Assembly (NCBI GenBank): GCA_029571225.1
Contig: JAKPTF010000035.1
Coordinates: forward strand, 81,925 to 145,924
Direction of reading: 5' to 3'
DNA: 64,000 nt
DNA from: Candidatus Omnitrophota bacterium
GTDB lineage: Bacteria > Omnitrophota > Gorgyraeia > Gygaellales > Profunditerraquicolaceae
Positions 31,301 through 61,300 of this stretch are shown piece after piece; position 1 is the stretch's first letter; every line of letters starts with the position of its first letter. Position numbers and translations under genes: made by a program. The notes under the pieces are model-generated. The model worked only from the letters and a program-made list of their open reading frames with translations, was not told the origin of the DNA and searched no databases.

Positions 31301-34300
31301 CTTTGGCTCCAGAATGACGCCGCGGGAATCCCTGCGGATAACGATTGCCTGCGTTCTGCCGTTATGATCCACAATGGCCTGTCCAAAAGGTTCAACGCCA
31401 GCATTGCCCCCGTCGCGAGGCTTTGTCCTTGCAGCGCCGCAGTTCACGCAACCCTTGAACTCGCGCAATTGGCTTATCCTATCATATGCCTTCAGGAATA
31501 ATTCGACATCCTTCTGCGGCAGAAGCCCAATTTCCACATCAAGCTCATAACCGCTTGCCGGCGCGTGGACCGCGTTGAACATAATACCCGTAATCCTGGG
31601 GCTCAACCCGCGCGCCTCCGCTTGCCTCATGAACTTTGCAACAGCGGTATTCGCATATTTTGTCTGGTTCCATACAACATGCCTGAGGCTTCCCGGATGC
31701 GCACGGTTTATATCGGTCGCGCCCACGACGACGGCTTTGACAAAATCCTGCTCTGCAACGGCAAGCGGGTTTTGACCTTTCAAAAGCACCGTTGCCTCTT
31801 CGACGGTCAGATGGAATGCTTTGAGAACGTCTTCACGCGGCCTCCTCCTGACGAGCATCCACGGCTGCATTTCCTGCCTGCTGTATTCGATCCAGAGGCT
31901 GAAAGCCGCAACGGACAACTCCCCGGGATATAGGTTCTGTATCGCAGCAAACCATTGTTCGAACCGGACGCCGTCTTTGTCAGCAATGATCTGCCTGCCT
32001 TCTTCTATAAGGGCAGGATCGATTATTCCTGACCGCTCCAGTGCATCGAGATTCGTGGTAAATGCCGTATGGCCCCAGCGTTCCAAAAGATGCTGGATGG
32101 TCACGGGAGCGATCGCGCCCTTGAATACCCTGAAGCTTGATCCAAGGCGCTGATTCAGTTTATAATTGAGCGGCTCGCTTAATCCTCCCCTATCCCCGCC
32201 TTTGAGCCAGATAAACGAAATCGTGCCGACCGTGCGCACCAATGCGCCCAGGAGGTTTTCATCTTTATGCTCCGATACAATAATTCCGCCGTCGTTCTGA
32301 CGCCTTGACGCGCCGGCAACAGGCAACCATACCTTGTTGCTGCGGCGCTCAACCCGCGCCTTCAACGCATCCAGCATACTCCATGCCGCGGCGAATTCAG
32401 GTGATTTCTTCCCGCCGTTATATGTTTTACGATATGTTTCAATGTCTGAAACCAAAACCGCCAGTGATGCAATCGCCGATGTTCTCAGACGCTTTGCTTC
32501 CTGTCGGAATTCATTATCGTTAAGCATGATACCACGATACGCGTAAAATTCCCTGTTCCAGCCATCGCTGGTCCGGTCGAGCAGCCGGTCCAGCCGCATC
32601 GCCCAGAAACCGCCGTTCTCTTTCGGCCGCATAGCATAAAATTTCCGGTCCTTTTCATCGCCGACCTCATTGAAACCAAGGCCCCGCACCAGGCCGCGCA
32701 GCGGGCCGAGCGTAAGGTTTTCATAATCTTCCTCGTACGATGCCCGGCTCTCGTCTTCCGGCGACCACAGATAATACAGACACGCCCATTCAGGAGCAAG
32801 GCCGAATAGCGCGCCCAGCTGTGCTGCCCGCATGAATGTCCGGGCGGTGATCTCTTTCAGGACATGTTTGCCGGGGATATACGATATGAAGTTGATCCCG
32901 CTGTTGAACGGATTACACGTAAATATCTTCACGGCGTTATTATCGAGCCTGAAATTCGTCACGCCGATAAGCACGCCGTCAAAGTAAAATCTGCCGCGTA
33001 CCCGGAACGATTCGAGCCGGCCGGTTTCAAGGGACTTGCTGGCCTGTTCAATGATCCATTGCTCTCTGATTTCAGAGGAAACGATCGGCCGTGTAACCGC
33101 CGCGCTCAGATCCAGGCCGCCGTCTTTCTTTCCTTCATATTTGCCGGTGACGATATCAGGGTCTTCACGGTGATCTCCCAGATATCTGGACCGGGCAATA
33201 AACCTGCCGATGACTCCGAACGCATCCATGGAAACCCCCGCGAGCGCTGCAGATATGCCGATTGCCAGAATAATGAACGCCGCAGCCGGGAAGCTGCCGA
33301 TAAGCATGCCTGCGCCGACGCTGCCAGCCATGATCATACCGACGAAAACAATAAAACCTTTTGCATTCAGGCCGTACGGGAATTCCTGCGCCCATTCCTC
33401 AAGCGTCTTTTTGTCCCCGCCGTCAAATGTCTTTTCGAGCAGGGCGAACCATTCCCTCGTGCCCTCCGTCTCACTACCCATCCAGATCATGCGGCAATCG
33501 GTCCTTGTAAGATCAGGCTCTTCCTTATCCACGCTGATAATGTATTCCAACTGGGACTTTGTCACTTGTTCTGAAACCGGTCGGGCATTTCCGCCCTTAA
33601 AGAATTCGTTGCCGTGATAGATATACAAGGCATCCGGCCCGATCTGGGCGATCACATCATTGACTGCAACTGCCTTGTTGACGCCGGCGACGTTGATGTC
33701 AACCGTGACGCCGGTTGCGCCGCCCGCTTCAAAAGCCTCATACGGCAGACGCAGCGTCCGGAAGAAATCGTTGAATTCCGCTGCGATAGACCCGCGCGCC
33801 TCGGGCGGAACCGGCTTGAACGCAAGCTGGAACACCGGTTCATTGGTAATCGCGCGCGTTTTCGCATCAGGCCGCAGCTCTAATCCCGGTTTTCGCCAGG
33901 CGTACGACATGCGGCCGGCGGCACGCGTCCCGAAAATGAATCCCGGATACAGGTATCTATGCGATACTTCGCCTTTTTCATTGATCTTTTGATTTTCCGC
34001 CAGCGCGATATCGACGCTGTGCCAGAGATCGATGCTCACTTTACGGGCGATTGGCTGGATCATTTCGATATGCACCGGATCAACGGTCTTGCCGCTGCGG
34101 TATGAGATATCTTCGATACGCGCGCCATTCTTGAAGGTGAACTTCTGCGCGGCGCCGTTGCCGTAAATAATGAAGTTATCGAAGAGCTCGACCTTGCCCT
34201 GTTCAGCAAGCGCTTTCAACAAAGGCGTGACAATACGCTCGTTCTGTTTCAAGATATCATTGCCGGAGATGATGGCGACAATGAACCCTTTCTCCAGCAT

Positions 34301-43300: not shown

Positions 43301-46300
43301 TTTGTACTGTCCGAATTCCCCTCCCATAAACAAAAGCTGCTTGCCCGGCATGGTGTACTGCAGACCAAGCAACAGGCGCAGGTTGGCGAACCGCTGCCAC
43401 TGATCACCCGGCATCTTTTCCAGCAATGAATGCTTCAGGTGCACCACTTCGTCGTGGGACAAAGCAAGCACGAAATTCTCACTAAAGGCATATGCCAGGT
43501 AGAAGGAGAGCCCGCCCAGATAAAAACCACGAAATACCGGATCAAGCTTGATGAACTCCAGGGTATCGTGCATCCATCCCATTGCCCATTTCATGGAAAA
43601 GCCCAGGCCGCCTGCGTACACCGGCCGGGAGACCATCGGCCAGGCGGTGGATTCTTCGGCGACGGTGAGGATGCCCGGATAACGCGCGTGCACCACCTGA
43701 TTGAACTGCTTGAGAAAATGCACCGCTTCGAGATTCTCCCTTCCGCCGTACACGTTAGGTATCCACTGTCCGTTTTTGCGGGAATAGTCGCGATAAAGCA
43801 TCGAGGCTACCGCGTCCATGCGCAGGCCGTCGATATGGTACTTCTGCAGCCAGAAGCAGGCGTTGCTGATCAGGAAACTGCGCACCTCATTCCTGCCAAG
43901 GTTGAACACCGCGGTGCCCCAATCCGGATGCCTGCCTTCCCGGGCATCGATATGCGAATACAGTTCGGTGCCGTCAAAATAGATCAAACCTTCTTCATTG
44001 AGCGGGAAGTGCGCCGGTACCCAGTCCATCAATACGCCGATCTCTTCCCTATGCAGCCGGTCCACCAGATACATCAGATCCTGCGGGGTGCCGAAGCGAG
44101 AGGTGGGCGCAAAAAAATTGGTCACCTGGTATCCCCAGGACGGAACAAAGGCATGCTCAGTAACCGGCAAGAGCTCCACGTGGGTGAAGCCCATGTCCCC
44201 GATATATTCCGCCAGCTCATCCGCGGTCTCCCGATAAGTCAACCAGCGATTATCCTCTTTCCTGCGCCAGGAACCAAGGTGCATCTCGTACACGGACATC
44301 GGGCTTTCCAGCGACTGACGTGCCGCACGGGTATCCATCCACTCCCTGTCCCGCCAGTCGTAATTCAGCTCCCAGACAATCGATGCGGTGGTCTCGGGAT
44401 GATCCTTTGTTGGAAACTGGTTAAAAAAGGCAACTGGATCTGATTTCAGACGGGACTGGTGGTCAGCGCCAAGCACGTGGAACTTGTACAACGCTCCCAT
44501 GCCCACTCCGGGAATGAAAGTCTCCCAGACCCCTGCGTAGGTTTTGGACATTGGCGCGACGGATCGATCCCATGAGTTAAAATCCCCGCACACGCTCACC
44601 TGCCGGGCATGCGGCGCCCACACCGCAAAATGCGTCCCCAGCAACCTGCTGCGGTCGAGTACCACATGCGCGCCCAACTTGCGGTAGGTGTCATAATGCG
44701 TTCCCTCGACCATGAACAGGTGCTGGTCGAATTCAGTAAAACGCGGCAGAAGTCCTTCCTCGTTTCCGCCATCCTGCTTAGCAGCGGAACCGTCCGGTTG
44801 CGCCTGCGGGGCAGTGCGCGACATCCGGATCGTCAGTACGGATTTCTCCGGCATGTTCAGGCTGATCCGACCTCCATCGTTGAATTGAGACGCAGACCCC
44901 GAACCTTCACCCGCCACGGTAGATTGACCCAAGGCCTGCGTTATCTCAATCGGAACAAGAAGCCGAACGCGTTTAATATCATATGTCAATCCTGCACGAC
45001 CCTTGACCTCAGCAAGAAGAGCTTCCAAAACTTCCAGTGAATGCCGGTTTATCAAAGCTATTTCCCTCTCGTACCCGGCCTGATTAAGCCACATGCCCCG
45101 GTAGACATAGAACCATGCGTACCAGTTACGCTCGGCAGCCGCAAAAAGATCTTCCGAGGACAAGGCCCAGGCCCCGCTACTATGCTTGCATTCCAGGGCA
45201 CGCAAGGCCGAATCGAGTAGCATGTGCCTGTTTATCAGGCGCAATCCCAGTCCGCGACTAAGCGTCCGTAATGGCAGGAGCAAATTGTCTTCATAGTCAG
45301 GATTGTAATCCGCGCGATGCTCATCTTCCACTCCCCAGATATAGTACAAAGTCGCCCAGGGGCTGTCCCATCCCAGGGCCTGGCCGATCTGTATCGCCCG
45401 CAACAGCGTGCGCAGGGTGATCTCCTTGCCCAAATGCTGACGGGGAATATAGGAAACCAGATTCTTCCTGTCCCAGCCCGGCGGGTTGCACCCGTAGATC
45501 CGCGCGCCGTTCTCGCTGATGGTGACGTTGGTCAAGCCCACTGCCCGCTCCCCGGCCCGGAAACCAGGCAGCGCATAAATCTCGATAAAGTCCTTCTTCT
45601 CATAGTCCGGACCGACGCGACGGATCATCCATTCCTCGCGGATATCCGAAGACCGGATAGCCTGCTCCTGCGCCCCACCGTCCTTGCCATGTCTGTTTTT
45701 CATTATCTCAAACAACCTCGTTCGAAGATCCTTTTCGGTCAGGCACGCTTTCAACATATCAAGATCGTCTTCGCTAAAGACTGAAGACGCGCTTGAATAC
45801 CCCCTCAACTTATACTCACCATACTCTGCCTTCGTAAAAACGAACGAGGATTCATCGAATATCTGGATTTCAAAGTACCGGTTAGCATACGAACGGGAAC
45901 GATCAAAAGGAAATCTTTCCGGCATAAAGAAGAAGCAATTTGCCCGGGTCGATCCGTTTCTGGTAACTACCCTTTTCTCTTTCAAGCGGAAACCCGCCGC
46001 TGCCATTTTTGCACAGATATCGTCTATCCCAATCTCCCGTTTCAGTATTCTCATCCCTATGTAATCGTTCGCAATCTCTGCCCCCCGGCAGAGCAGTCCA
46101 AAGACATACGCATAACATGCATCGGGATTTTTTAACTGCTCCGAATTTAACGGCACTCCGTACTTCTTGTTCAGGCGCAGATAAATACTCAAGGCTCCCT
46201 TGATTCGATGGTCTATCCTAACAATTTGTTTTGTTTCTCCAGTCAAAGCGCGCGCGATATCATCACGGATCTGGCAACTGACACCTTTTGGATCGATATA

Positions 46301-49300
46301 ATAATCGGCGAACGCATTCTCGATCGCCTTTGACAAGACGGGAGCGATGACCGAGAAACAGCCGTTGCGCAGGTTGGAAGCAAGATCATCCATGCCGAGA
46401 CGATAGGCCAACGGGATATACACCAGGTTCACATCCGTAAGCATCTCTCGCGCCCGGGCATCCAACGATCCATGTAATGCTTTGACCTGGAAGAGCTGCG
46501 CCTGCAAGGCCGATTCCACTTCGTTTACACTCGAGAATCTATCCAGCAATTCCCGCATCCTCCTGGCTTTGGCTGCCTTGACAGCCTTGAATTCTTGATA
46601 GCGACCGCTCATCTTCCTCATCTGTTCGATGAGCTCCGCGTGGAAATTTTTCTGATTGCGTATATAGTTCTCTAAAGGCATGAAAATCTCTTCCATCTCT
46701 TTCTCGATTTCAGCTTGCTCCTCGCTTGGCAGCAATTCAAGCATGTCAATTCTCTCTGAAAACTGTTCCAGCAAAGTCGCCAGCCGCGTATCCTCATCAA
46801 CATCCGCCGTTCCTATATATATCCCGGCGCGTTCCTTCAATCGGGAAGCTAACGATGGCAGTCCCAGAACTTCGGCAAACGGCGCATAGAAATCGTGAAC
46901 CCGGCGAGCAAGGAAGCGTAATTCGAAGATCGTGTTCTTGGTTGGAGCCAGAGGCAGTTTCTCTTCAAGCGCAGCAAGCGGGAAGAAACCGAGAGATGCT
47001 TTTTCTGCTTCATGCAGCCTGGCCACGATCTCCATGATCTGGCGCGTTCCTTCGTGCGTTTTCATCGGCCAAAGATTGATCGTCTCTGGAGCGCCATTGA
47101 AATCTTTGCCCGGCACGCCCACTAAATACGGCAGCTTGTTACCCGATTGCGCGCCCAGCCGGGCCATAGGCGCAGCCAGGAAGTTGTAATCGGTAGCGCT
47201 ATCGCCGATCCCGATGATCAGCGGATTTACAAACGCCCTCTCGCGCAAGAATTCCTTCAGGGTGAACTCCTTATCCCGCACGCTGGCGATCACAAAGGTG
47301 GTCCCGGAGAACACGTACATCTTCTCCTTCAGACCGTCAGGCAGCATCGGCATCATCAATTCCACGATCCGGGCGGTGAACCGGGCGTCCTGCAGCTCGG
47401 CCGCTGCGTATTCTTGGCTGTTTTCTTTTAGTTCCACAGAAAGCATCTTGCCTGCGCCGTTGTTCAACTTCACGATGCCCAGCTGATACCGATATGTGAC
47501 GATGAATTCTTCAAAAATATTCAGCACCGTCTGCATATCCTGAGATTCCAGAGTGAACCTGATATAATCTTCCGTGGGCACGTCGAACATGCTTACCACT
47601 GCCGTATAGAACGCCAGGGCATAAGCCTGGATGATCCGGAACTGCTCTTCCTCGCTGAATGGCTCTCCGCAGGCCTGGGCATACTCATCGCCTTTCTCAT
47701 CCCAGATCAGCTTTTCGCTGCCGCTCATACAATAATAGACTAAACGCGCCAGCTGTTTATGCATGCCGCGCTGCCTGGCTGCTTGCGTCAACGGTTTGAT
47801 CACGTTCTCATAGCTGTGCACTAACAGGCCGCCGGTGATCACCACAAACCACACGTTCTTCGCCAGCAGGTCGAGCGCGGCGTTTATCGCATCCTGCGTG
47901 ATCGGTTCGTTTGGGCCTGTTAACGTACCATCCTTATCCATAAAGAATACCAGATCGGAATGTTTTTTATTGACCGCCTTGATCAGCGCCAGCATAACAT
48001 GCAGCTGCCCGACTAGATCAGGATTGGAAAGAATATCCCGGCCCAGGGATGCGTACGCCGCGTCCCCCTCGACGCGATACCTGTTCAGCTCCTCTTCCAA
48101 GCTCACCCATTCCAAGGCGGAGGTCTTTTTCGCGTCAGGAGACAGCAGGGCGATCTCCCGGTCATCCACCAGATATAAATACATGCTGCCGATTTCCCGG
48201 TCAGTACCGTGCACTACGCGCAGCGCGCCTTCGGATCCCACCACAAACGCGCGCTTGCGATCAAGCTGTACGGTGCCCTGGTAGAGTTTTTTCTCCGCCG
48301 CTTGCAGGCCGGCTTCCCGGTCATCGGTAATCAGGCCGCAATTGGTTGCTGCGGATACGTCTCTGGCAAAAGGCATCTTCTCCACGTTGCCGCGCACACC
48401 TATCAAGATCTCTCCCTCCTTATTCACCAGGAGCACGAATACCGTACGATGCCACAGGCCCTGGGTGTGCACTTCGTCGCGCGGCCGGGCAATGAATGCG
48501 CCCGATGCATCGGTCAGAAACGCGCCCTGCTCATCGGTGATGTAGAACAACTCTTCCTTCCCGCCGTCACGGGCCAAATTCCTAAGGAAAGCCGCTATCC
48601 GCTCGTTATCAAAAGCCGCCGCGATTGATCCTACAAAGACTTTGGGATTATCGCGCACTGCCACTTCCAACTCGCTGATATCCCAGAAACGGCTTTCCGC
48701 AGCCACGATCATATCCGCCTCATCCACAACCAGTTTCTCCAGCTCTTCGTCAGTGGCTTGATATACGTACAGCTTGTAGATGGCCCGGTTGTAGGCGTTG
48801 TTGCCCTTGACATCGTCGCAGAAAGTCCCCATTTCATGCAACCGGCCAAGGTCGATGTTCTTAAGATTCAGCTCCTCTTCGATCTCGCGCAGACAGCCTT
48901 CCATATAGGTATCGCCCAAGTTCAGATGGCCGCCCACCGACTCTGCGTATTTGTCCGGATCGATGTCCTTGTCCGCACCGCGCTTTTGCACGAACACTTG
49001 GCCGCGGGGATTTATTACCCAGACGCGGTTGTCCCGATGCAAGTCTCCGTCCACGTGCACCAGCGCCCGAGGCTTGACCCTGCCCAGCACCATGCCGCAG
49101 GCATCGATAATCTCGAAAAAATCCATTGCGTAGCTGTCTTCTTTAACGATCTGGTTCAGCAGGACGGTCTTATTCAGTTTGCTGCGGAAATCACGCTGCC
49201 ATTCCAGGAGTTGCCGGGTAAAATTGTAAAGCGTGGAGTACTCATCCTTTCCCTGCAGGTCTTTGGCATAACGCAGGAATGCCTGCACGTACGGCCGGTC

Positions 49301-52300
49301 GAAATTGGTGACCGCCTTAAGCACGGCGGCATATCCATCGGCAGAGCTTCCGGCAGGAATGCGGTTCAAATGGTACTGGGAAAGGTCGATTTGATCGAGC
49401 AGGCGGGCAAAGGCCCTGACGCCGATGTGTTCCGAGGCGGTGATCACAATGATCTCGTAATCGCGTTCGCTGCGATTGGCCAGGGTGAAACCGGTAATGG
49501 GGTTTTCGCCGACATTATTGTTCAACACGACATGGCTTGCGGAAGAAAGCGTGATCTGCTCCGGAGGACCACGCATTCTTAGAATCCCCATGGTCGCGGA
49601 AAGCTTTGCGCTGTCGGTTTCGGCATTCCAATCTGCAGAAATATTTTTTGGCCAGGGCATGAACCTGACGACTTGCAGTCCCGGATACAGCGAAGCGAAC
49701 GGGATCACATCGGTGGTCTCGCCCGGTTTGATCGTAATTATCTTAAAATCGATATCCATAACCAGAGACACTTCGGGATTGTACACTCCGGCAGCATCCT
49801 GCTTGAATATCACATTGCCTTCTTCATCAGTCTTCAACTGTGCGGCCATAGCCGGCAAGATGTGGGAATAAACCGCCCAGCCGTTACCCTGTGTGACCTG
49901 CGCCGGCACCAACGCATACCTGCCGGAGACAATCGTTTCTCCGGAGGACTTGAACAGCCTGGCAAAAATATCCTTGAACGTCCAGTCGATACTCGGGGCG
50001 ATGGCATCGGTGTTACGCAACGTATGCGAATATCCGGCGGGAATACGCACCAGGCAGCCGAACGGCATCTGCTGGCTGTATTTCGCTTCCAAAGCATTGA
50101 TGTCGGTTTCCGAGATAATCCTGGCCAGCAACGCATGTTCTTCTACGCCCAGATAAATACCCTGACAGCATTTCTGCAGCTCATCCGGAGAAATGCTTGC
50201 TGCATACAAAGCATCCCGCAGCAACACTTTGGCCAGGCCGCTGTCCGGAGCGAACCCGTATTTGATGGAGAGCTCGTGGATCAAACCGTTGTAATCCACG
50301 AAAGCGATATTCTCCGCGCCTGAAAAAGTCAATTCTTCTGCTTCATGGGTGTGGATACCCTGCCTGCTTGCGATCCGATTCTCCCCCTCGGAAAGACTCA
50401 AACCCAGGGCCCGGGACGACGTCTGGCTGAACGCGGTATACTGCCGCTTACTATCTTGCACCCAGCGACTGACCACAAATGCTGAGGGAATCACGGAAAC
50501 CTGTTTGTCCTGCGTCATATATATTGTATCGGCATTGTCCACGATCGCCGCGCGGATGTAGAGGGCACGAGTGTATTCCCGGAGGAACGTGCTGCCGTTG
50601 CGCATGGCGATCGTTTCCGCCAAGAGGCCGAACGTCTTGCTCAAGGCGAATCCCTGTTTGCCAAGGCGCAAGGCCTTCTGCCAGAGATCCCGGTCATTGA
50701 TCCTCCAGAGGGCGGGATGCTTCTGCGTATCTTCCCTAATCTGTTGCTCCAGTGCTTCCAGCTGCCTGATCGCTGCCAGCACATCATCGTATTCCTGGAT
50801 ATCGAGGAAACTTTTCAACTCATCCAGATAGTGCGGGAGCTCGCCGCCGTCCGCATGCACGGCCTGCATCTGCGCCAGGTACTGCGTGGTTAAATCCTTT
50901 GCCGGCAGACCCATGACCAGATCCGTGTTCCTTACGTAAATCTTCTTCACCTCCAGGGTTATCACTACCACCGCGCCAAACAACATCAGCAGGTCATTAA
51001 ATCCACGCATGCCCTCGGCAAACCGGGTGATCTTTAAGAAAGCATCTGCAATTACCCCTCCGTCGAGAGACAGGCCGGCATGTTCCCTGGCCCAGCGGTA
51101 GATGTTGATATATTCCTTGACCGGTCCTCGCCAGCTCCAGTCATGGCCTGCGGCGTTTTCCGTGACCCTCTCCCAGTGCTCGGGAACCCGGAAGGTGTTG
51201 ATCGCCCGCCAGATCGCCGCGTACAATTCCTCGTCGTTTATGTTCTCGAACAGCCAGCCGTTGCCCTTACCGGTGAACCATTCGTATTCCTGGAAATTAT
51301 CCGCCAGTCCGCCGGTGCGGCGAACCACGCCGGGTACCCGGTTGATCAGGGCTACCACCGGCCGGGTGCCGAACGGCTCAAATTCAGAAGGATACAGGAA
51401 GATGTCCAGGGCGTGGAACACGTCGCGCTGCTCGTCAGTGGTGTACTTCTGCTTGAAATTTACATTCTTCGGCCAGCGTGCCTGTAGCGCCTGTAGTTCG
51501 TCAGCGACCTCGGTGGCGTATTGGCTTGAGGTGTCCCCCTTGCCCAGGTACATGAACTGTACTCCGCCATTGGTCTCCAACAGCAGGCGGTCGATCGCCC
51601 TGACCACTTGGCGTACACCCTTCTGTTCGTCGATACGCGCGACCATACCAATAAGGGGAATATGCTGATCCACCTTGAATCTGAGCTTCGCCTGCATCGC
51701 CGCTTTTTTGAGCGGTTTCTCCTGCTTGCTCACCGGCTGCCAGATCGGATAATATATCCCGTTAGGAATACCGAGCAGGTCGCCGATGCGCGCCCTGTAC
51801 GCCTCATGCAGGCCGCTGCCTCCGGAAGGCGTCATCATCTCGTCGCGGTTAGTGCGGGATACTGCATTCAATTTGTCCGCGTGGGTGATCGCCCCGCGCA
51901 TCAGGCAGAAATGATGCTCGCTTTCCGGCTGGCGCATGCCGAACCAATGTTCACCATTGATGCCAAGCTCTGGGAAGCGATTTCCGGGGATCCAGCCGGC
52001 GGTGTGCTTTGGATTGTGCACGGAGAACAATGTTGCGGCCTGCGAAATAATCGGATCGTTGCGGTACTTGGTCTTGACAAACACCGGCACCAGCGCAGCC
52101 GGCCAATCGTTGGCGTGCAACACCTGCGGCTGCGGCATCTCGCCGGCTTCAACCAGAGCCTTGACCGCCTTGAGCGCGCCTTCGGAAAGTCCCACTGCGA
52201 AGTTCAACTTATCGCCGGAATACGGCTGTCTGAACCAGGCACTGCCTGCGGAGGTATAATAGGTGGTACTGCCTTCCCGCACCTCGCTGAACCAACCTGC

Positions 52301-55300
52301 CTCTTCCAGGAAATAATAATTTACGTTGCCGTTAGTCCCCTTCCAGATACGGCATGGCAACTGTTTATATTCTATATCCACCATACAGGTGATTCCGGTA
52401 TTCACGAGCATGCTCTCATCCACGGCATCATACTTATACAGGATCACCGATACGTTCAATCCGAAATTCGACAGGGCAGTAGCCAGTTCGCCGCAGACGT
52501 CTCCCAGGCCGCCGGTCTTGAAGAACGGTTCAGATTCAGGCGTGACGATCACTACATTTTTCACTCCGTTGGGATCGAGCAGGTTGCGAATGCGGTAGGT
52601 AATATCCTCTGCGAACACCGCGCCTTCGTTATCGCGGATATGCTCCTGGATCTGTCCAGCGATGAATCGCAGCAGTGCGACCACATCCGGGTTGGCCAAC
52701 ACGTCTTTGATCCCGGCGTATTTGCGTTTGCTATGCGCAATGCTCTTGAGCAGAGAATTAAGTTTTACAAATTCCACACCAAAGATTTCGTCAGTGTGCA
52801 GGGTCACTTGGGCGGCCTCCGGGATGACGTAGGCAAAGACATGGGTAAAGGTATTCTCGATCATGCCCTGCTGGATGAAGTCGCGCTGGATCCTGATCCC
52901 CCGCTGCGATGTAATACGGATAAGATGATCCGCCTGAACCTTCATCCCCAGCTCCTGTTGCATCCGGGATACCGCTGCCTGCTCGGGCGTTTCTCCAGCC
53001 AGAACATGGCCGCTGGCCGATGCCTCCAGCAAGCCAGGATACATCTTCTTGGAAGCAGCACGTCTTTGCAGCAGGATCTGGCCGTCCTTGTTGATCACAA
53101 AAACATACACGTCGCTGTGCCATTCGCCGGCCAGATGCATCTGAGTCTTGGGCATCACCAGGCCGATGGCATTGCCTTCGGCGTCCCTCACGTCCAGGTA
53201 CTGCTCGCCGGTGACTCCGGCGTAACCAATGATCTCGAAATCCAGCTTCAGGCTGTTGATGATATGTTTGGCCAACTCGCGGGAGAAGGCAAAGGCGGAA
53301 ATCGTTCCGCGCATTTCCGCTTCCCGCAACCGCTCGATGATTCTGCTCACCGCAGGGGCTTCCGATTCGAGGATCTGCCGAGATTCCAGGCCAGCAAAAT
53401 CGTCCACGCCCAGGGCGCGCAATACCATAGCCACAAACGTCGCCTCGTCCACAGCCAGCGGATCCGCTGCCTCGAGCATCGCCCGGGCCAGCTCATCGGA
53501 AATCCCCTGGTTGTTTAAAACCCATTCCCGGGCATGCAGCCTGCGGAAGATGATAATATCCTGCTTTGCCTCTTCCCCGCCGTCGGCGGAGTACGCCATT
53601 GCTGTAAATATACCTGCAGACCCGAAAATACCCGCCACGGTAGGTTCCCGGGCCTGCAGAAGTGTAACCGTATTAATCCCAGCTCTCAGATTCTTGACTC
53701 TCAACCAGATCACCACCACCGCGCCGTAGGCGATAAGACCGACCTTGCGAAGCGCCAGTCTGATCATGCCGAGGATGCTGTAGACGGAGCTCTTCAGGGC
53801 CTGCGCGTTGCTGCCGCCGTCTTTCGGATCCGCAAGGATACTCTCGCTGGCAGTAACGATGATCAGCTCATAATCATCATCGCTTGTATTCTTGATTTTA
53901 AATCCCGTAATCGTATTTACCTGGTCGTTATTATTCAGGACGATCTGCGAACCGCCAAGGATATCAGGGATGACCTCTGGAGGACCTCTCGCTTTTATAA
54001 CCGTCAGCAATGCCTTTAATTTCGACCTCTCTGCCGCCATATTCCAGTCCCCGCCTATATTCTTCGGCCACGGCATGATCCGCACGATCTGTAAACCGGG
54101 ATATAACTGGGCAAAATCGAATACCTTTGTCTCCTTGCCGGGTTTCACAGCTATCATCTTAAACACAACATCAATTATCTTATCCGCAACAGGATTATGG
54201 ATGCCGTCTTCATCCTTGGCAAATAACGGCAACCCATCTTTATCTGTCTTTATAGTGGCTATCATATGATCCAGAATATGAGTGTACAATTCCCATCCAT
54301 CGCCGTTCTCGATCTCCGGAGGCAGTATCTGAGGCGCCCCTTGGGCTTCACCGCCACCCTGTACCTTAAATACCTGCAGATACAAGTCTTTGAATGTCCA
54401 GTCAATACTTGCTATCTCCTTATTAATATTGCGGATGGTATGTATGTATTCTGCAGGCGTCCGCACCACATACCCGAATGGAACCTGAGATGTATATACC
54501 TTCTCCAGTTCATTGATATCTTCATTTTTCCACATATCCCATACCACCCGTTTTTCCTCAGCGGTCAAGGTTATACCCTTAGTCTTGATATAGTCATCCA
54601 GCAATGCCTCGTTTTTCTCAACGCCGCTGGTCGTCCTTTGTTTTTCCAGGTCATACAGCATATCCATGCCCAAGGCGTTAAAAATGTTCTTGTTCCCCGC
54701 AACGTTGTATTTCTCAAGCAAATCCTTGATCAACTTCCCGTAATCCATATACCCCGTATAATCCGACCCCGAAAGAGTCCTTTCGGCTATCTTGGGATGT
54801 TTATGTATCCCTTGCCGGCTCCCTTTCGGGTTCTCGGCTTCGGTCATGCTGAACCCTCTTGCCCGGGAAGATTCAGGATTGAAGCTCGGATACTGCCGCT
54901 GGCTGTCGCCGTCTTGGCCTTTAACCAACCGATTCACAATGAACTCATATGGGATAACCGTGACCTGCTGCTGCAAACTCATATACAAGAGGTCTTCATT
55001 ATTGATAAATGCCGACCTGACAACCAACTCCTTCGTATAATCAAGAGTATCGGCTGTGGCGCCGAGTTTCTCAAGGTCTTTGCCTAAAGCGTCAAACGCA
55101 ACATTGATGGTCCGGCCTGTGGATTGCCTGTCCAATGACGCTTTCCATCTGTCCGCACTGTTCGATTCCCACTGGCTGCGATCGTTATAAATCCCGGCAA
55201 CTTCTTGCTCCAGCCGCTCCAACGCTTCTAATGATTGAACCGCAGCGTTAAACTTCGCTGTATCCAGCAATTCTTTCAGCTCGCGTACAAACCGGATTCT

Positions 55301-58300
55301 CCTCACCGAAAACTTTGTGGTCACCAGCGCGCCCAGCCTGTCCGCCAGCCTGCGAAGCGGCCGGAACAGCGTCCTGAACAGCGCCAAATTGCTGTAAGCG
55401 AAATCTCTAAGGAACTGACCGCAACTCTTTGTGCCGCCATCTTGCTTTGTTTCTGACTGCAAAGCACCCAAAGTTTCCTCATCGAAGGGCGAGATGAAGA
55501 TGCTCATCAGGTCATCGCCGTATTTCTCGCGCAGGGCCTCAAACCAGGCCAGGCCGCATTCCAGGATGATCAGCTTTGAGCCCTGGGCAAGCTTGGTATC
55601 CAGGCCTTCGATGTAAACAGTGTCTTTGTGCTCTTCTTTAGTGACGGGATCGATATATACAAACTCATCTACGATATCTTTGACTGCCATGCCCTGAAGC
55701 TGGTTATTGATCAAAGCGGTGATCACATGGCCCTGCCATTCCTCTTCTACAAAGAACCAGTGATCGGGATTACGGTAGTGATAATTCACGCCCATCTGCT
55801 CGCCCTTGCGGATGTTGCGGGTATGGATCAGAACGAATTTCTCGATCAGATCGCTATATTTGCGCTCGAAAGCCTCCCACACCGCACCCTTGCCGCCTCC
55901 CGGAGGGCCGGAGTACACGACGAACTTGGCAGGCGTGCTGTATGCGGACAGATCGATCGTGCGCAGCCGCTCGGCATAAGCATCAGCTGTCGCCTGATCA
56001 TCGCTCAACAGATCAGCAAAAATCGGTTCTTTGCCATTCTGAATGTTCTGCTGATCGATTCCTTGAGCGAGATTTATGAATATGGCCAGCGAGAAATCCT
56101 CGGTAAGATGAGCCATAATCTTTTCAAACTCTTCTTGGCTGCTGGCCCATTTATTTACCAGGACCTTCTTGTATTCGTTGCGCCGGGCAACCTGGTTCAC
56201 TGCCTCGTTGATGCGGTTTACAAATTCTTCCTGCTTGGTAGGCACGTAGAAATCTTTTTCCAGCAGCGCCTCGCCGTTGGCTAATTTGCCCATGGAAGCA
56301 GCTTTAACTTTCTCTGCTTCTTGAACCTCGCGGGAATGAATACGCTTGGCGATCTCAAGGCCGACAACGCCATGCAGCGCCTTGGCAGGATTGCTGATCG
56401 ATGCCTCGATCTCTTCATCCGAGAACGGCGAAATGAAGATGCTCATCAGGTCGCTGCCGTACTGGTCGCGCAGGGCCTCAAACCACGCCAGACCGCACTC
56501 CAGGATGATCAGCTTGGAACCCATCTGCAGCTTCGATTCCAGGCCTTCGACTTCCGCAACACCCCTGTGCTCTTCTTTGGTAACCGGGTCAAGATACACA
56601 AACTCGTCAGTGAAGTTGCGGATTGCCATACCCTGCAGCTGATTATTGATCTTTGCCTGCAGCACGTAATCTTTCCATTCCTCTTCTGCAAAGAACCAAT
56701 GCCCGGGATTACGGTAATGATAATTCCTGCCCATCTGTTCGCCGTCGCGGATGTTGCGGGTGTGGATAAGCACAAACTTCTCGATCATGTCGTTGTACTT
56801 TTCGGAGAATTTCTCCCACACCGCGCCCTTGCCGCCTCCCGGAGGACCAGAGTAAATGGCGAACTTCGCCGGCGTGTTATATGCCGAAAGATCAATCGTG
56901 CGGATCAGCGCTGCATAATCATCCGCAGTAGCGGAAGGATTGTTCAGGAATGCAGCAAAAATAGCAGCTTTGCCTTCTTTAATATTCTGCTGATCGATCG
57001 CAGTAGCGAGATTGGAGAAGATGGCGAGTGCGAATTCCTCGGTCAGGCGGTTAATCGTAGCTTCGTATTCGGCCTGGGAATTGGCCCATTTATTCACCAG
57101 CACTTGTGCATACTCATGCCGTCTGGCTACCTGGACCACCGCTTCTTCGATACGATTGACGAATTCGTTCTGATTGGTGGGAACGTAGAAATCCTTGCCC
57201 TGCAGGGCCTGCGCGGCGGCAACCTTGTCCAGCGATTTGGCCTTGACCTTCTCCGCTTCCTTGACTTCGCGGGCATGGATGCGTTTGGCGATCTCCAGGC
57301 CGATGATGCCGGAGAACGCGCGCTGCCTGATGATTTCGATGGCGCGCTTAAGCTTGTCGCCATCCTGCTTAGGTTGTTTCTCCGAAGCCCCTGCACTAGG
57401 AATATCCGATTGATTCTCGACTGGAGGAGCACGGGCAGAAACTCCACCCCTCTCGCTCTTTTGTATCATTTCGGCTTCCGCCCTCACGTTTAGCTTCTCA
57501 GCTCTTTCGCACAATTCGTTAATTCTTTCTATCAATTTGAAATACCGATTATTTTTGTTACCGTCAACATACCCTGGGGTAGACTTTATTAATTTATGCA
57601 CTTTTGAATCCCGGAAAGTTGCCTTTAATGCTTTGGCTCTACGGCCAATAGCTTCATAATCAGCCTCGCTTAGTCTTTTTTCTTGCTCCTGCTGCTCCAG
57701 TTTCTCAAGCCATTTCATCCCGGTGCGAAACTTGGTAATTTCTGCAGCATCCTTTTTCGTACTATCCCCACTGCAATTGGGCTCGCTCAATATATGCTGT
57801 AGTTCTAAATCAAGAACGCGCATCTTATTCAAGCGGAGCTTGGCGGGCAATACTTCGAAGATCACATAACCGGAAACGACAAGTCCATACATAATGCTTA
57901 ATCCGACGGCCTTCGCAAAGCCCACTTCCGGATCTCTCTTGAAACGCCCGTAAGAAAGGGCGGTGTAAATCAATCCTATCGCTCCCCAGGCAAAAAGCAT
58001 AACAATAAGTAAAGCCGGAGTTAATATCGCGGGCAATATGGCAGCCGCGACCGTGCCTCCGATAACACTCAAAGTGACAATTGCGTAAACTGCAGCAACA
58101 AGCTCGGATTTCTTGGTGAGATCTGCCTGCTCAACTTCTCTCACAACGTAGTTCACATGCTTTCCGTCCGCATTTACCATTTTGGCAGGGTCATTTTCGG
58201 TTCCCTTCCCGATATAATTCATTCCACGGTAGAAACTGCGGAGGTTCAAAACGAAGTTCTGAGCCTCTTTATTCTTATCCTTTACTTTTCCGTCCTTGCG

Positions 58301-61300
58301 CTCAGTTTTAACTGCCGCCTTTGAAAACCATTCAAAAAGATCTGCCTTCTGCTTCTCAATAGCAGCCCTGGCTTTCTCCGGATGCTTAATATGCCACATG
58401 AGAATCGCGGTTCCAATAATTATGTTAATTCCCGTTACGGTAAGATAATATATCGCAGCGGCGATTCCATACATTGCCGCTCTAACCTTACCTCTCCATC
58501 CCAATTCATTGTTTGTAAACGGCCCAAACAAGAAAACAAAAGGCAGCATGTAGAAGAATAACTGGAAGATAACTCCAAAAGGATGGATAGGAGTGAGCGC
58601 AACGATAATGAAAAGGATCATTGCAAATTTGATGGTAGGTTCATAAGCTTTGTATAATTCTTCGAAAGGCACGACCGGATACACTATGTCTTTAACGCCA
58701 GAAGTAAACAATCCGGCCTTACCGAGAAAAGCGTTCATTACCTTTTCCGCATGCAATGGAATTAGGGTGGCGAAAGTAAAAACAAGACTCCAGAAACGCT
58801 GCAGGAGCAATCCCAAGCTTATTAAAACATTTATAGAAACAGCGGTCCGAGCCCATCCATACTTCTGGAAATATCCCATTAACTTTACCAGGTGGGAATC
58901 CCCGGTTTTGGGCCTGCTCATAAATAACCTTAACCCTCCCGAGGTAATAGCTTCTGTAAAGATGTATTGCGCAACAATGAAAAATAGGGGCAATGCAAAA
59001 TAGGAGAACGGGCTAAATGTGACAAATAACGCAAATACAAAGATCGTTAGATTATACAAGGGAATAAGCGGTTTGTTGAAATAGAAGTCAAAATTCTGCA
59101 GCAAAGTCAGCTTCTCTGTCCAATGAAGCTGGTCGCTTAGAAGCAACTTCTGAAAGTGTGTAGATAGAGCCTCATCCAATACCAGGCCGCCAAATCTATT
59201 TTGAAAATCAAGGATCGCAACCATGAGCATTTCACGCGGCCGGCTCCAGCTTATTACCGGCGTAAAGCATCCCCTGTATCCCAAAAGCATTGCTTCATGC
59301 GCAGCCGCTGTATCCTCGATGTTAGACATAAAAGCTGCCCACTGCCTCATTACGTTCCACCTCACCAGACCTGGGCCGTAGAAAGCGTGGATCCCAACTT
59401 CCGCTTCCATTGCCACTATCCGCTCATTCCAGGTATCCTCTGCCACCTTGTGGTTGGCTGCAACGTTACTGACACCTCCCGTCCCCATGGACAAACGCGT
59501 AGTCATCCACCCCAAGGTAGCATCACTCATAAACTCCTGGGCTACGAATGGCAGCAAGTAATAGTCGGAGGGGAAGAAAAAGTGGTCACGGTCAAGGTTA
59601 ACGATCAACGCATCATCCTGCCCATTCTTGAAGATCATATGATCAATGAACCGCGCTGCGATGCTCCATTTATCCGTCTTAACTTCCCATCGCTTCGATT
59701 CTCCCTTTTCATAATTGTAGACTATGGGCTTGCCCTCTAAATCGACCAGAACATCGCCTTTCTCAGAGTCCTTGGTAGAAACGACGACCTTTCTTCCGTA
59801 TTGATTAACCACGAACCCGCGATTTTTCACTAACTCCTTAATAAGCGTGTTGGGTTCCTTCCCTCCCCATCTTTTATCTTCTTCACTCTCATTTGCCTTA
59901 TCAGGATCAATGTCTTCATGAATATGTACCAAACCAACATACTTGTTAACTTTCTCTATAAGCGCCCCTTCATCAATAATAATATTTTCCTTCCATTCAG
60001 ATTCTTTGGCCAGGCGGTTTGGCCTCGCGTCATTCGCTTCGCGCTCCATTTGATACCTGAAGAAATCTTTATAGGCGTTTTCCAGAGCCTCTTCAGCGAA
60101 AAGCAGTGTTTTCAAATACCCGTCTGCTCGATAAATAACCCACCCTACGACGATCCTATCTCCAATTACCTTGGAGATCTCTTCAATGACCACCGGCACC
60201 TTCATTTCATCTTTCCAAGAATTCGGCTTCTTTTTCAGGACTTTTTCCTTTCCCTGGGCCACAAGCCTATTTATAGCTTCCGGATCATTCTCCGCGAGAT
60301 AAGCAAAAACCATGTCAGCAAGATCATCGATAGTTGCCCTGAGCGCCATTTTCGCATCAGTGAATTTTTCAATGTTCTTCAAGTAAATATCTCGAACAAA
60401 TTGATTTTTGAAATCATCGCGGTTAGTTATTTGCAAAGCCTCCAGCAAGTTATTATCTGAGAACAATCCCTCTTTCAAGAATATTCTCCACGATTCCCCA
60501 AATTGCTCCTTAAATACCCTGAATCCGGATTTAAGGACTCGGTAAGGTCTTTGCTTGGTACGCGGCTGTTCATCAAGCTCCTCTATGTTGCCATCGAGAA
60601 ATTCAATGCTGGGAATTATTCTTTTCTTCCCTGTTCCTTTGCCGATTGTCATGATTGTTGGATTCCGAGATCGCCTATCGAACTCTTTCTCTCCGCCAAC
60701 CAACGCAATTTGGGTTTCCATTTTATTGAACCATTTAATTATTTCCAGCTGGGCTTGCGCATTAATTGGTTTGTAAATAGTCTTTTCTCCTACCTTGGTA
60801 GCCTTCAGCAACTCGGCGGCTTCGTTTTGATCGACAAGCCAGTATTTTTTGAGAGTGTTATTAACCATTCCTTCGAATGAAATTTGCCAATACCTCTTAG
60901 TTTGAATTCTTTCCAACTGTTTCTTGCCGATCCCTTCGTAAACGAAAATGCTATCCCATCCCTGATTGCGGATTATAGATGTCGAAGCTGCATCCGCCAT
61001 CAAATACCACCAGCTGCGAAAAGACATTCTGACATTCAGCAACACCAAGGGGATGCCTATAACAATTAATCCAAGCGTAACAATAGTACCAAGGCCGAAA
61101 GCTAAGCTCAATACTGCAATTCCGACCGAATACGCCCCGAGGACGAAGAAATATTTGATAAAGAAACTCTTCATGACGCGCAGCCGTTGTTCGCTTAATG
61201 CTCCTCGGTAAGGATATTCTTCGTCTTTTGTCTTGCCCAAGAAATGCCTAATATGGAATGATATATAAGGCAGGAATATTTTGACGAAGAACATCGGCCA

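Follow-up and report, generated by a model that had tools for sequence, protein, structure and literature searches.

Our analysis concerns a 64,000-nt stretch of DNA from a Candidatus Omnitrophota bacterium (assembly GCA_029571225.1, contig JAKPTF010000035.1, positions 81,925 to 145,924 of the forward strand), referred to here as the window, and in particular the region between window positions 48560 and 55441 on the minus strand. With a probability that we place at about 70%, this region is part of a giant multi-enzyme open reading frame (ORF) for sugar metabolism, in which two old paralogous cassettes flank a GlgA-like domain and a bicupin enzyme is coupled with a Nudix domain. Each cassette comprises a short hydrophobic element, a bicupin module of about 490 amino acids (aa) and, further downstream, a Nudix domain that resembles type 1 isopentenyl-diphosphate isomerase (IDI).

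Two paralogous series around a GlgA-like domain

A frame-by-frame stop count over the whole window found no stop among the 21,333 codons of the minus-strand frame that begins at position 64000, and 320 to 1,138 stops in each of the other five frames. This stop-free frame exceeds the window at both ends. As the entire window is free of stops in one frame, it must be an internal piece of one giant gene. Residue i of the ORF (1-based) occupies window positions 64000-3(i-1) down to 64000-3i+1, and the region under study corresponds to residues 2854 to 5147. An alternative genetic code with stop codon reassignment was suspected and then dismissed, as the standard code already yields a stop-free frame. 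The original prediction had missed that the whole window is one ORF, and had also missed a linker-like element, A', and a third Nudix domain, Nudix C, both described below.

Read along the minus strand, the region begins with a DGG tripeptide (55433 to 55441, residues 2854 to 2856) that follows the second of two guanylate-kinase-like repeats and forms the upstream boundary of series A. Element A' (55283 to 55432, residues 2857 to 2906), a degenerate third linker copy, is joined without a DGG to bicupin A (53822 to 55282, residues 2907 to 3393). Bicupin A, delimited by its paralogy to module B and by the family alignment, consists of an N-terminal helical region, a barrel 1 that carries an HxHx3E...H site and a long helical insertion, and a barrel 2. 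The next DGG (53813 to 53821, residues 3394 to 3396) lies 8 residues past the last beta-strand of bicupin A and is followed by linker A (53585 to 53812, residues 3397 to 3472), a hydrophobic stretch of 76 aa with a DGG on both sides that contains YGAVVVIWLRVK. After a further DGG (53576 to 53584, residues 3473 to 3475), the segment at 52565 to 53575 holds about 125 aa without a family match and then the IDI-like Nudix A (Pfam NUDIX at residues 3628 to 3760; PF00293, E value of 2.9e-15), which is joined without a DGG to the GlgA-like GT5 and GT1 domains with their KTGGL motif (51065 to 52564, residues 3813 to 4312).

Series B begins beyond the DGG at 51056 to 51064 (residues 4313 to 4315). Linker B (50852 to 51055, residues 4316 to 4383), which is hydrophobic, 68 aa long and bracketed by DGG on both sides, contains FGAVVVITLEVK. 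It is followed by the DGG at 50843 to 50851 (residues 4384 to 4386) and by bicupin B (49391 to 50842, residues 4387 to 4870), the copy used for structure modeling, which is 70% identical to its orthologue P0001. The segment at 48569 to 49390 contains an interdomain stretch of about 90 aa and then the IDI-like Nudix B (Pfam NUDIX at residues 4992 to 5111; PF00293, E value of 1.2e-10). A DGG at 48560 to 48568 (residues 5145 to 5147) is the downstream boundary of series B; this one and the two that bracket linker B are kept in position in two related contigs, L001 and L002, described below. Nudix C, a third IDI-like domain (47951 to 48559, residues 5148 to 5350), belongs to the same domain set and lies outside the limits of the original prediction. 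A Nudix box is not recognizable in it, and a HAD-IIB domain (TIGR01484) comes next. All blocks listed in the original prediction were found on the minus strand where it had placed them, and its limits, 48560 and 55441, are exactly DGG codons (residues 5145 and 2854). Its order of parts also holds, with bicupin A, DGG, linker A, DGG and Nudix A in one series, and bicupin B running into Nudix B without a DGG in the other. In series A, a DGG-linker-DGG and about 125 extra residues thus separate bicupin from Nudix domain, and Nudix A is fused to GlgA.

Our results demonstrate that the two series are paralogous. By pairwise BLASTP, module A (53822 to 55432) and module B (49391 to 50842) align end to end with 190 of 487 residues identical (39%; E value of 2e-124); the best piece for the bicupin modules in a self-BLAST of the whole ORF has an E value of 3e-101. 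The two Nudix domains share 29 of 87 residues (33%; E value of 4e-16), and linkers A and B share 10 of 17 around GAVVVI (E value of 2e-4; shuffle P value of 0.0005 to 0.0015). The block-by-block paralogy that had been proposed from shared motifs is thereby confirmed for modules, Nudix domains and linkers, and extends past the short motifs themselves. SRQGIHxH, Gx5PAxYxHTxRN, SIDWTFKD, LYPGLQxVRxMPWPKNI, RGPPE, VLNNN and DYExIxxTASE were each found in both cupin copies. A recent or assembly-derived repeat is ruled out by the 39% protein identity, by 36% identity at third codon positions and by the single 47-nt high-scoring segment pair in blastn.

The duplication is old. In a neighbor-joining tree of bicupins with 200 bootstraps, A, B, P0001 and P0004 grouped together in 100% of the bootstraps and B grouped with P0001 in 100%, and in none were A and B exclusive sisters. 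At the DNA level, with third-codon-position identity as low as given above, nucleotide similarity between bicupins A and B is almost gone. The tree and the vanished DNA similarity together indicate that the duplication is older than the split from the lineage of L001 and L002.

L001 and L002 are contigs with a GC content of 46% from two JGI samples. Both contain, in order, a homologue of window residues 7992 to 8704, linker B, bicupin B, Nudix B and an OMP-decarboxylase-fold domain that is absent from the window. The three B elements are 55 to 75% identical to those of the window (linker B, 55%; Nudix B, 75%). The B cassette is therefore a conserved unit that stands in another neighborhood, which shows that cassettes move between contexts. 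Comparison of L001 (9700 to 10020) with L002 (10850 to 11140) indicates that the two contigs are nearly identical, with frameshifting indels between them. Because of these frameshifts, the giant ORF is called as 5 genes in L001 and 11 in L002, and thus public gene catalogues hide giant genes of this kind from protein-level searches. A protist or metatranscriptome origin of the related JGI contigs was considered and dropped, as the named homologues are from Omnitrophota.

The original prediction went further and proposed that one three-part supermodule of anchor, cupin and Nudix was duplicated in place around GlgA and that one of the copies later had its parts reordered. All three types of part are indeed similar between the series, and the parts lie within 7 kb, flanking one domain on either side. 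However, element A' lies directly upstream of bicupin A. Aligned locally, it scores 42 against linker A (shuffle P value of 0.0005; 0.025 against linker B), and MAFFT placed it against the linker of the family member P0002. A linker thus precedes each bicupin, which makes linker A an additional copy and not one that changed place. Nudix A is as distant from Nudix domains of the B type as from those of the C type, and its alignment to Nudix B is limited to its N-terminal half. The B cassette of L001 and L002 follows the homologue of window residues 7992 to 8704 and not GlgA, and deep bicupin paralogues coexist in other giant proteins, such as the two copies in P0003 (P0003a and P0003b). With Nudix A equidistant, a third linker-like element present and the B cassette relocated elsewhere, duplication as one segment followed by rearrangement is not demonstrated. 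Such a history is compatible with our data but not required by them, and we regard it as possible, with the odds leaning clearly against it. We retain the reading of two old paralogous cassettes.

The domain between the two series had been identified as GlgA, and this identity is upheld in a guarded form. It matches PF08323 (GT5) with 164.6 bits (E value of 4e-48) and PF00534 (GT1) with 52.9 bits (E value of 4e-14), and the KxGGL motif is present as FFKTGGLGDV. The score against TIGR02095 (305.1 bits) is below the cutoff of 328.45, and therefore we call the domain GlgA-like only.

A bicupin family and its Nudix partners

The module of about 500 aa had been described as a cupin of no assigned function. 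Neither copy matches any Pfam family (E value of ≤1), NCBIfam family or Protein Data Bank (PDB) sequence, and PDB sequence searches with a single sequence or with a profile of 17 sequences gave nothing significant. A viral structure library returned only weak double-stranded-beta-helix matches. Only two close relatives emerged from a word-indexed search of 5.8 billion proteins. Among 1.84 billion cluster representatives, searched exhaustively with a profile, 33 belong to the family, and most of these sit in proteins of 1,000 to 3,000 aa or in fragments truncated by contig ends. Three bicupin-bearing proteins are named Candidatus Omnitrophota in NCBI. Among them is P0004 (MCF7917224.1), which is collinear with window residues 77 to 2167 and then with module A. 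Our family alignment comprises 17 module sequences that are 19 to 28% identical to module B, except for module A (39%) and the orthologue P0001 (70%). Three of the 17 members match Pfam Cupin_2 (PF07883) inside the module, with E values as low as 4e-6; the window copies do not at an E value of ≤1.

The AlphaFold2 model of module B, built from this alignment, has a pLDDT of 91.2 and a pTM of 0.89 and consists of four long helices (residues 1 to 112), a barrel (115 to 290) with a helical insertion (184 to 254), and a second barrel (310 to 471). Foldseek aligned about 415 columns of the model with the Bacillus subtilis oxalate decarboxylase OxdC, the quercetin 2,3-dioxygenase YxaG, MncA, and vicilins and 7S/11S seed globulins at E values of 1e-10 to 1e-8, with TM-scores of only 0.3 to 0.47. 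The top 50 PDB fold matches are almost all bicupins, aligned over 410 to 445 columns, and the match probability is 1.00 for many cupins. Modeled alone, barrel 1 has a pLDDT of 84.7, and its best matches are small Cupin_2 metal proteins, namely the Mn-cupin TM1459, RemF, DddK and KdgF, with target TM-scores of up to 0.78. Model and fold matches thus sharpen the cupin assignment: the predicted fold is a bicupin with two tandem barrels.

Twelve columns are invariant in the 17 sequences (module B numbering: Q161, H164, H166, E170, H273, N277, D286, T288, K290, P396, W405 and N456), and W397 is nearly invariant. The first six correspond to the two canonical cupin motifs. Barrel 1 invariantly carries Gln-x2-His-x-His-x3-Glu followed by His-x3-Asn, and then Asp-x-Thr-x-Lys, and barrel 2 has no conserved metal ligands. 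Cupin motif 1, G-x5-H-x-H-x3,4-E-x6-G, reads GSRQGIHKHPKIAE in copy A and ASRQGIHTHEAEE in copy B; its core H-x-H-x3-E is invariant among the 17 divergent members, and the flanking glycines are not conserved. Motif 2, G-x5-P-x-G-x2-H-x3-N, reads GYVVRTPAEYIHTIRN in copy A and GCLVRIPAGYSHTLRN in copy B, with H273 and N277 invariant. The invariant set in barrel 1 would, judged from these patterns, form the classical cupin metal site of three histidines and one glutamate. Most likely, the bicupin is a metal-dependent enzyme that acts on a small sugar-derived or nucleotide-linked metabolite and works together with the adjacent Nudix domain, with barrel 2 playing a structural role.

Two other functions can be considered. 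The first, already suggested in the original prediction, is that of a sugar-phosphate isomerase, either a mannose-6-phosphate isomerase (PMI) or a cupin-type phosphoglucose isomerase (PGI), serving the neighboring glycogen and nucleotide-sugar enzymes. The surroundings are rich in sugar enzymes, including PGM/PMM domains upstream in L001 and L002; the putative 3-His/1-Glu site is accompanied by a conserved Gln; and barrel 1 of the model is split by a helical insertion that lies between its two motifs, an arrangement that we take to be reminiscent of type I PMI. However, the profile, PDB sequence and fold searches all failed to support this suggestion: no PMI or PGI family of Pfam or NCBIfam matched even at E values of up to 1, no PDB sequence matched, and the 50 best fold matches of the whole module, like those of barrel 1, included no PMI or cupin PGI. 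The insertion is confined to the clade of the window and a few other members, and since most members lack it, it is not a family feature. An isomerase of this kind is therefore improbable. The second is that of a noncatalytic scaffold or ligand-binding domain, like the seed storage vicilins or cupin dimerization domains. The fold matches include vicilins and CENP-C cupin domains, but the only polar residues that remain invariant at 19 to 28% identity are the cupin metal ligands together with Q, N and D-x-T-x-K, a pattern resembling an active site, and we consider a purely structural module very improbable. A metal-dependent enzyme remains our preferred reading of the bicupin.

The Nudix domains that accompany the bicupins are IDI-like. 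Among family models and PDB entries, Nudix A and B match type 1 IDI best, followed by YfcD and DR0079; Nudix A matches the IDI of PDB entry 3hyq (E value of 3e-11) and Nudix B matches Escherichia coli IDI (E value of 7e-6). Both score below the 127-bit cutoff of the IDI model NF002995 (A, 90.4 bits; B, 45.9 bits). NSVCGH of IDI aligns with ASASGH in Nudix A and ESVGGH in Nudix B, replacing Cys67 with Ser and Gly, respectively, and ENE aligns with ENT in Nudix A, replacing Glu116 with Thr. Cys67 and Glu116 (E. coli numbering) are the catalytic residues of IDI. The original prediction had given both domains IDI-type Nudix boxes; the domains are indeed IDI-like, but the box of A is a degenerate IDI-like one (SRMQQELG) and that of B is a near-canonical hydrolase box (REIEEELN). 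In Nudix B, the near-canonical box GHLNLGDTYMEGCLREIEEELN lies in a region, GHLNLGDTYMEGCLREIEEELNL, that keeps the REx2EE core and departs from G-x5-E-x7-R-E-U-x-E-E-x-G-U by having D in place of E and N in place of G, and the core is lost from the corresponding region of Nudix A, GHVLAGETPEQAAVSRMQQELGM. Nudix enzymes specific for ADP-ribose, NADH or coenzyme A carry a Pro 15 to 16 residues after the box, SQPWPFPxS or the NuCoA motif, respectively. Inspection of the sequence around the boxes of A and B found none of the three. Nudix B would probably be an active diphosphate hydrolase, and Nudix A and C, with their degenerate boxes, would probably only bind a ligand or have another activity.

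Against Pfam NUDIX, A and B score above the threshold and C scores below it. Nudix C is related to both in the self-BLAST (E value of 3e-8 to A and 3e-5 to B), and an all-against-all comparison resolved three subtypes. Nudix B is 75% identical to its L001 orthologue and 46% identical to the domain of P0015, and Nudix C is 36 to 37% identical to the Nudix domain that follows the bicupin in two distant members, P0018, an Omnitrophota protein, and P0027. In these two proteins, the Nudix domain begins about 70 aa after the bicupin. The recurrence of a bicupin followed without a break by a Nudix domain in distant members indicates that the order of series B is the widespread, older arrangement. The association of bicupin with Nudix was found in both window copies, in L001 and L002, in P0018 and in P0027, and 5 of 30 family-bearing proteins contain a NUDIX domain. 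A literature search for a bicupin-Nudix pairing returned nothing relevant.

Several points weigh against our reading of two old cassettes with a bicupin enzyme coupled to its Nudix neighbor. In the neighbor-joining tree, A grouped with P0004 in only 66% of the bootstraps. Most family members lack the bicupin-Nudix adjacency, though many of them are contig fragments. Nudix A scores 64 bits against Nudix B and 72 to 78 bits against C-type domains, and because it is no closer to B than to these, coinheritance of bicupin and Nudix as one block is unproven. The spatial convergence of the four putative metal ligands rests on their match to the two canonical cupin motifs. Finally, cupins are functionally very diverse, and some are nonenzymatic.

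Several further bicupins were observed in the family. P0003 (3,164 aa) contains two, at residues 1088 to 1573 and 2434 to 2972, which come from two deeply separated clades, and it also carries guanylate-kinase-like and HAD domains; a member of its cluster reaches 3,731 aa on a 54.6-kb contig. The presence of two copies in P0003 indicates that several bicupins per giant protein are a recurrent feature. Another member, P0009 (KAJ3431613.1, residues 342 to 769), is annotated in the eukaryote Anaeramoeba flamelloides, in a protein of 1,140 aa that is labeled "IMP-specific 5'-nucleotidase" and encoded on a 20.8-Mb scaffold. It could reflect horizontal transfer or symbiont-derived sequence.

Hydrophobic linkers and DGG tripeptides

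Among the 21,333 residues of the ORF, the pattern G[AS]VV[VI] occurs at two places only, in linkers A and B. The original prediction called these DGG-bracketed linkers anchors, and as transmembrane anchors they would tether soluble enzyme modules to the membrane. Nothing within several thousand residues is more hydrophobic than these linkers (Kyte-Doolittle maxima of about 1.8; 1.84 in linker A); other DGG-bracketed segments (residues 10193 to 10293 and 11424 to 11514) hold helices that are clearly hydrophobic and paired; and many transmembrane helices are reported for giant Omnitrophota proteins. However, evident transmembrane helices of the same ORF reach maxima of 2.0 to 3.1, and the uncharged cores of the linkers are short (about 11 to 14 residues), rich in beta-branched residues (GAVVVI) and flanked or interrupted by Arg or Lys. 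A single pass per linker would also place the Nudix and bicupin domains across the membrane from GlgA, and this topology appears unlikely because GlgA needs a cytoplasmic nucleotide sugar. The anchor claim is thus weakened; as a reading of the linkers it is possible but unsupported, and we doubt it. The two other DGG-bracketed segments, which are short and lie at window positions 33120 to 33430 and 29450 to 29740, have Kyte-Doolittle values of 1.6 to 2.3 in their paired helices and resemble membrane hairpins between soluble enzyme modules.

DGG is the most overrepresented tripeptide of the ORF, with 37 occurrences between window positions 1390 and 55441 versus 6.7 expected (5.5-fold), and Asp precedes one third of all Gly-Gly dipeptides. 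The residue before DGG is mostly Lys, Arg or Gln (Lys in 15 of 37). None of the 37 lies within a recognized domain, although such domains cover 27% of the ORF (P value of 8e-6), and several lie 6 to 30 residues from a domain edge. DGG also stands where internal repeats and synteny blocks begin or end; for example, the repeats that start at residues 6106 and 10292 both begin at a DGG. In L001 and L002, DGG occurs 8 times versus 1.4 expected, and all four aligned sites are kept in position. These data demonstrate that DGG marks boundaries in the ORF. The distant relatives P0003 and P0004 have no DGG.

A signal at the DNA level, such as a recombination site or RNA motif, was considered and rejected. 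Asp is encoded by GAC at 33 of the 37 sites, compared with 43% overall (P value of 6e-9), and the first Gly is encoded by GGC at 29 of 37. Asp-Gly outside DGG is also 73% GAC, and the first glycines of other xGG are 66% GGC, so that codon-pair context accounts for most of the bias. No GAC-GGC bias was found at the DGG sites of L001 and L002.

One possibility is that DGG tripeptides are proteolytic sites, cut after Gly-Gly by a cysteine peptidase such as the C39-type domains reported for giant proteins of this kind. The predicted products would be bicupin A, a 76-aa hydrophobic peptide, Nudix A-GlgA, a 68-aa peptide and bicupin B-Nudix B. The overrepresentation of DGG with its preceding Lys, its exclusion from recognized domains, its enrichment and positional conservation in the related contigs and its coincidence with repeat and synteny edges are all consistent with processing. 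Double-glycine leader peptides have hydrophobic residues at positions -4, -7 and -12, but the residues before DGG do not show this pattern. No peptidase domain was found by Pfam in the 21,333 visible residues of the ORF, which continues past the window; the motif is absent from P0003 and P0004; and a flexible hinge or a recombination seam would yield equal sequence statistics. West-Roberts et al. (2023; bioRxiv 10.1101/2023.11.21.568195) discuss C39 and S8 peptidases and possible processing of giant proteins and state that the cleavage points of giant Omnitrophota proteins are unknown. Term searches of that preprint and of bioRxiv 10.64898/2026.06.07.730766 found no cupin and no double-glycine motif (the string "DGG" was not among the terms), nor any mention of cleavage in the latter, and a literature search for Omnitrophota together with double-glycine returned nothing. 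We treat DGG as a candidate processing site or flexible seam between cassettes. Proteolysis at DGG is possible, although we would not expect it to prove correct, and the broader proposal that [K/R/Q]-D-G-G serves both as the processing site of giant polyproteins and as the seam at which cassettes are duplicated and exchanged between giant genes is more tentative still. In that proposal, the supermodule would be cut into three enzyme units and two small hydrophobic peptides, and the giant gene would supply the enzymes of a membrane-associated, glucan-handling pathway in fixed stoichiometry, as an operon-like polyprotein.

The giant ORF and its relation to known systems

Some 25 recognizable domains, from carbohydrate metabolism enzymes and others, are concatenated in the ORF. 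The Pfam order of the full translation starts with a duplicated guanylate-kinase-like P-loop, NUDIX, the GlgA-like GT5 and GT1 domains and NUDIX. It continues with a CBM48/alpha-amylase/branching enzyme C-terminal domain, HATPase, GH94, a cofactor-independent phosphoglycerate mutase-type metalloenzyme (iPGM) and HAD, and then with GT2 twice, polysaccharide deacetylase, GH9, methyltransferase, HAD and alpha-amylase. It ends with a second GT5 plus GT1, GDE_C and another alpha-amylase. A hydropathy scan found strong hydrophobic helices in clusters, for example at residues 383 to 2032 and 12772 to 14022. The former cluster contains about 12 hydrophobic helices and is an N-terminal region (window 57900 to 62860); P0004, whose name in NCBI is [quoted passage not shown] is collinear with it at 30% identity.

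Other internal repeats were seen along the ORF. At window positions 55463 to 57322 (residues 2227 to 2533 and 2540 to 2846), a tandem duplication of about 310 aa with 70% identity (E value of 1e-148) is far more recent than the duplication of the bicupins; both copies carry a guanylate-kinase-like P-loop, GPPGGGKG, that matches only the first 50 or so positions of guanylate kinase models. A pair at 45002 to 45685 and 32438 to 33127 (residues 6106 to 6333 and 10292 to 10521) is 35% identical (E value of 7e-38) and has no Pfam match, and a HATPase-like pair that starts at a DGG (residues 7056 to 7341 and 7430 to 7765) is 26% identical. A second complete GlgA-like GT5 plus GT1 domain, 25% identical to the first, lies at 7700 to 9120 (residues ~18294 to 18766), and 4520 to 6400 holds a partial third GT5 (residues ~19195 to 19361) followed by a GDE_C amylo-alpha-1,6-glucosidase domain (E value of 5e-96). 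With these domains, the ORF thus contains a near-complete set for glycogen synthesis, branching and debranching.

These results have several implications. About 5% of the ORF had matched no family before and can now be placed in a defined bicupin family, in which a putative metal site is conserved and an IDI-like Nudix partner recurs, and the module is a concrete, expressible target of about 490 aa for biochemistry. The occurrence of series B orthologues in a different neighborhood shows that giant genes evolve by moving cassettes, and a DGG motif that delimits cassettes makes the processing of giant proteins testable with existing metaproteomes.

Giant Omnitrophota proteins are the closest known counterparts of the ORF. 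West-Roberts et al. (2023; bioRxiv 10.1101/2023.11.21.568195) describe an "Archaeovorin" category with glycosyltransferases (GT5 being the most prevalent), methyltransferases, glycoside hydrolases, peptidases and NUDIX hydrolases. A 2026 preprint (bioRxiv 10.64898/2026.06.07.730766) describes a class of "multi-enzyme metabolic cluster" proteins and a sugar metabolism co-occurrence module centered on PF08323 and PF00534, with repeated domains in 65% of such proteins that arose by ancient and not by recent duplication. The ORF resembles such proteins in its length of more than 20,000 codons, its GT5/GT1, NUDIX, HAD, methyltransferase and glycoside hydrolase domains, its interspersed hydrophobic helices, the age of its internal domain repeats at the DNA level and the naming of its bicupin homologues as Candidatus Omnitrophota. 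Unlike them, it has no C39 or S8 peptidase, SecA-DEAD or dockerin domain in its visible part.

The bicupin module shares with OxdC, YxaG, MncA and the 7S/11S globulins two tandem barrels, with the His-x-His-x3-Glu ... His pattern in barrel 1. Its identity to known bicupins is only 6 to 10%, however, and it differs from them in an extra N-terminal helical region of about 110 aa, in its embedding in a giant polypeptide and, in the clade of the window, in a helical insertion of about 70 aa inside barrel 1. OxdC and YxaG have a metal site in each barrel, whereas barrel 2 of the window bicupin lacks the ligands. The Cupin_2 proteins Thermotoga maritima TM1459, RemF, DddK and KdgF give the best fold matches of barrel 1, but in the window helices interrupt this barrel, and a second barrel is joined to it. 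Nudix A and B share with type 1 IDI, YfcD and DR0079 an N-terminal beta-strand extension and the "GH" after the catalytic Cys position, and Nudix B, unlike type 1 IDI, keeps the hydrolase-type REx2EE box. The duplication itself is ordinary, a further case of ancient paralogy within a giant multi-enzyme gene of a kind already known. What our comparison adds is twofold: a previously unannotated bicupin family with a predicted metal site and a Nudix neighbor, and a DGG tripeptide that delimits the cassettes.

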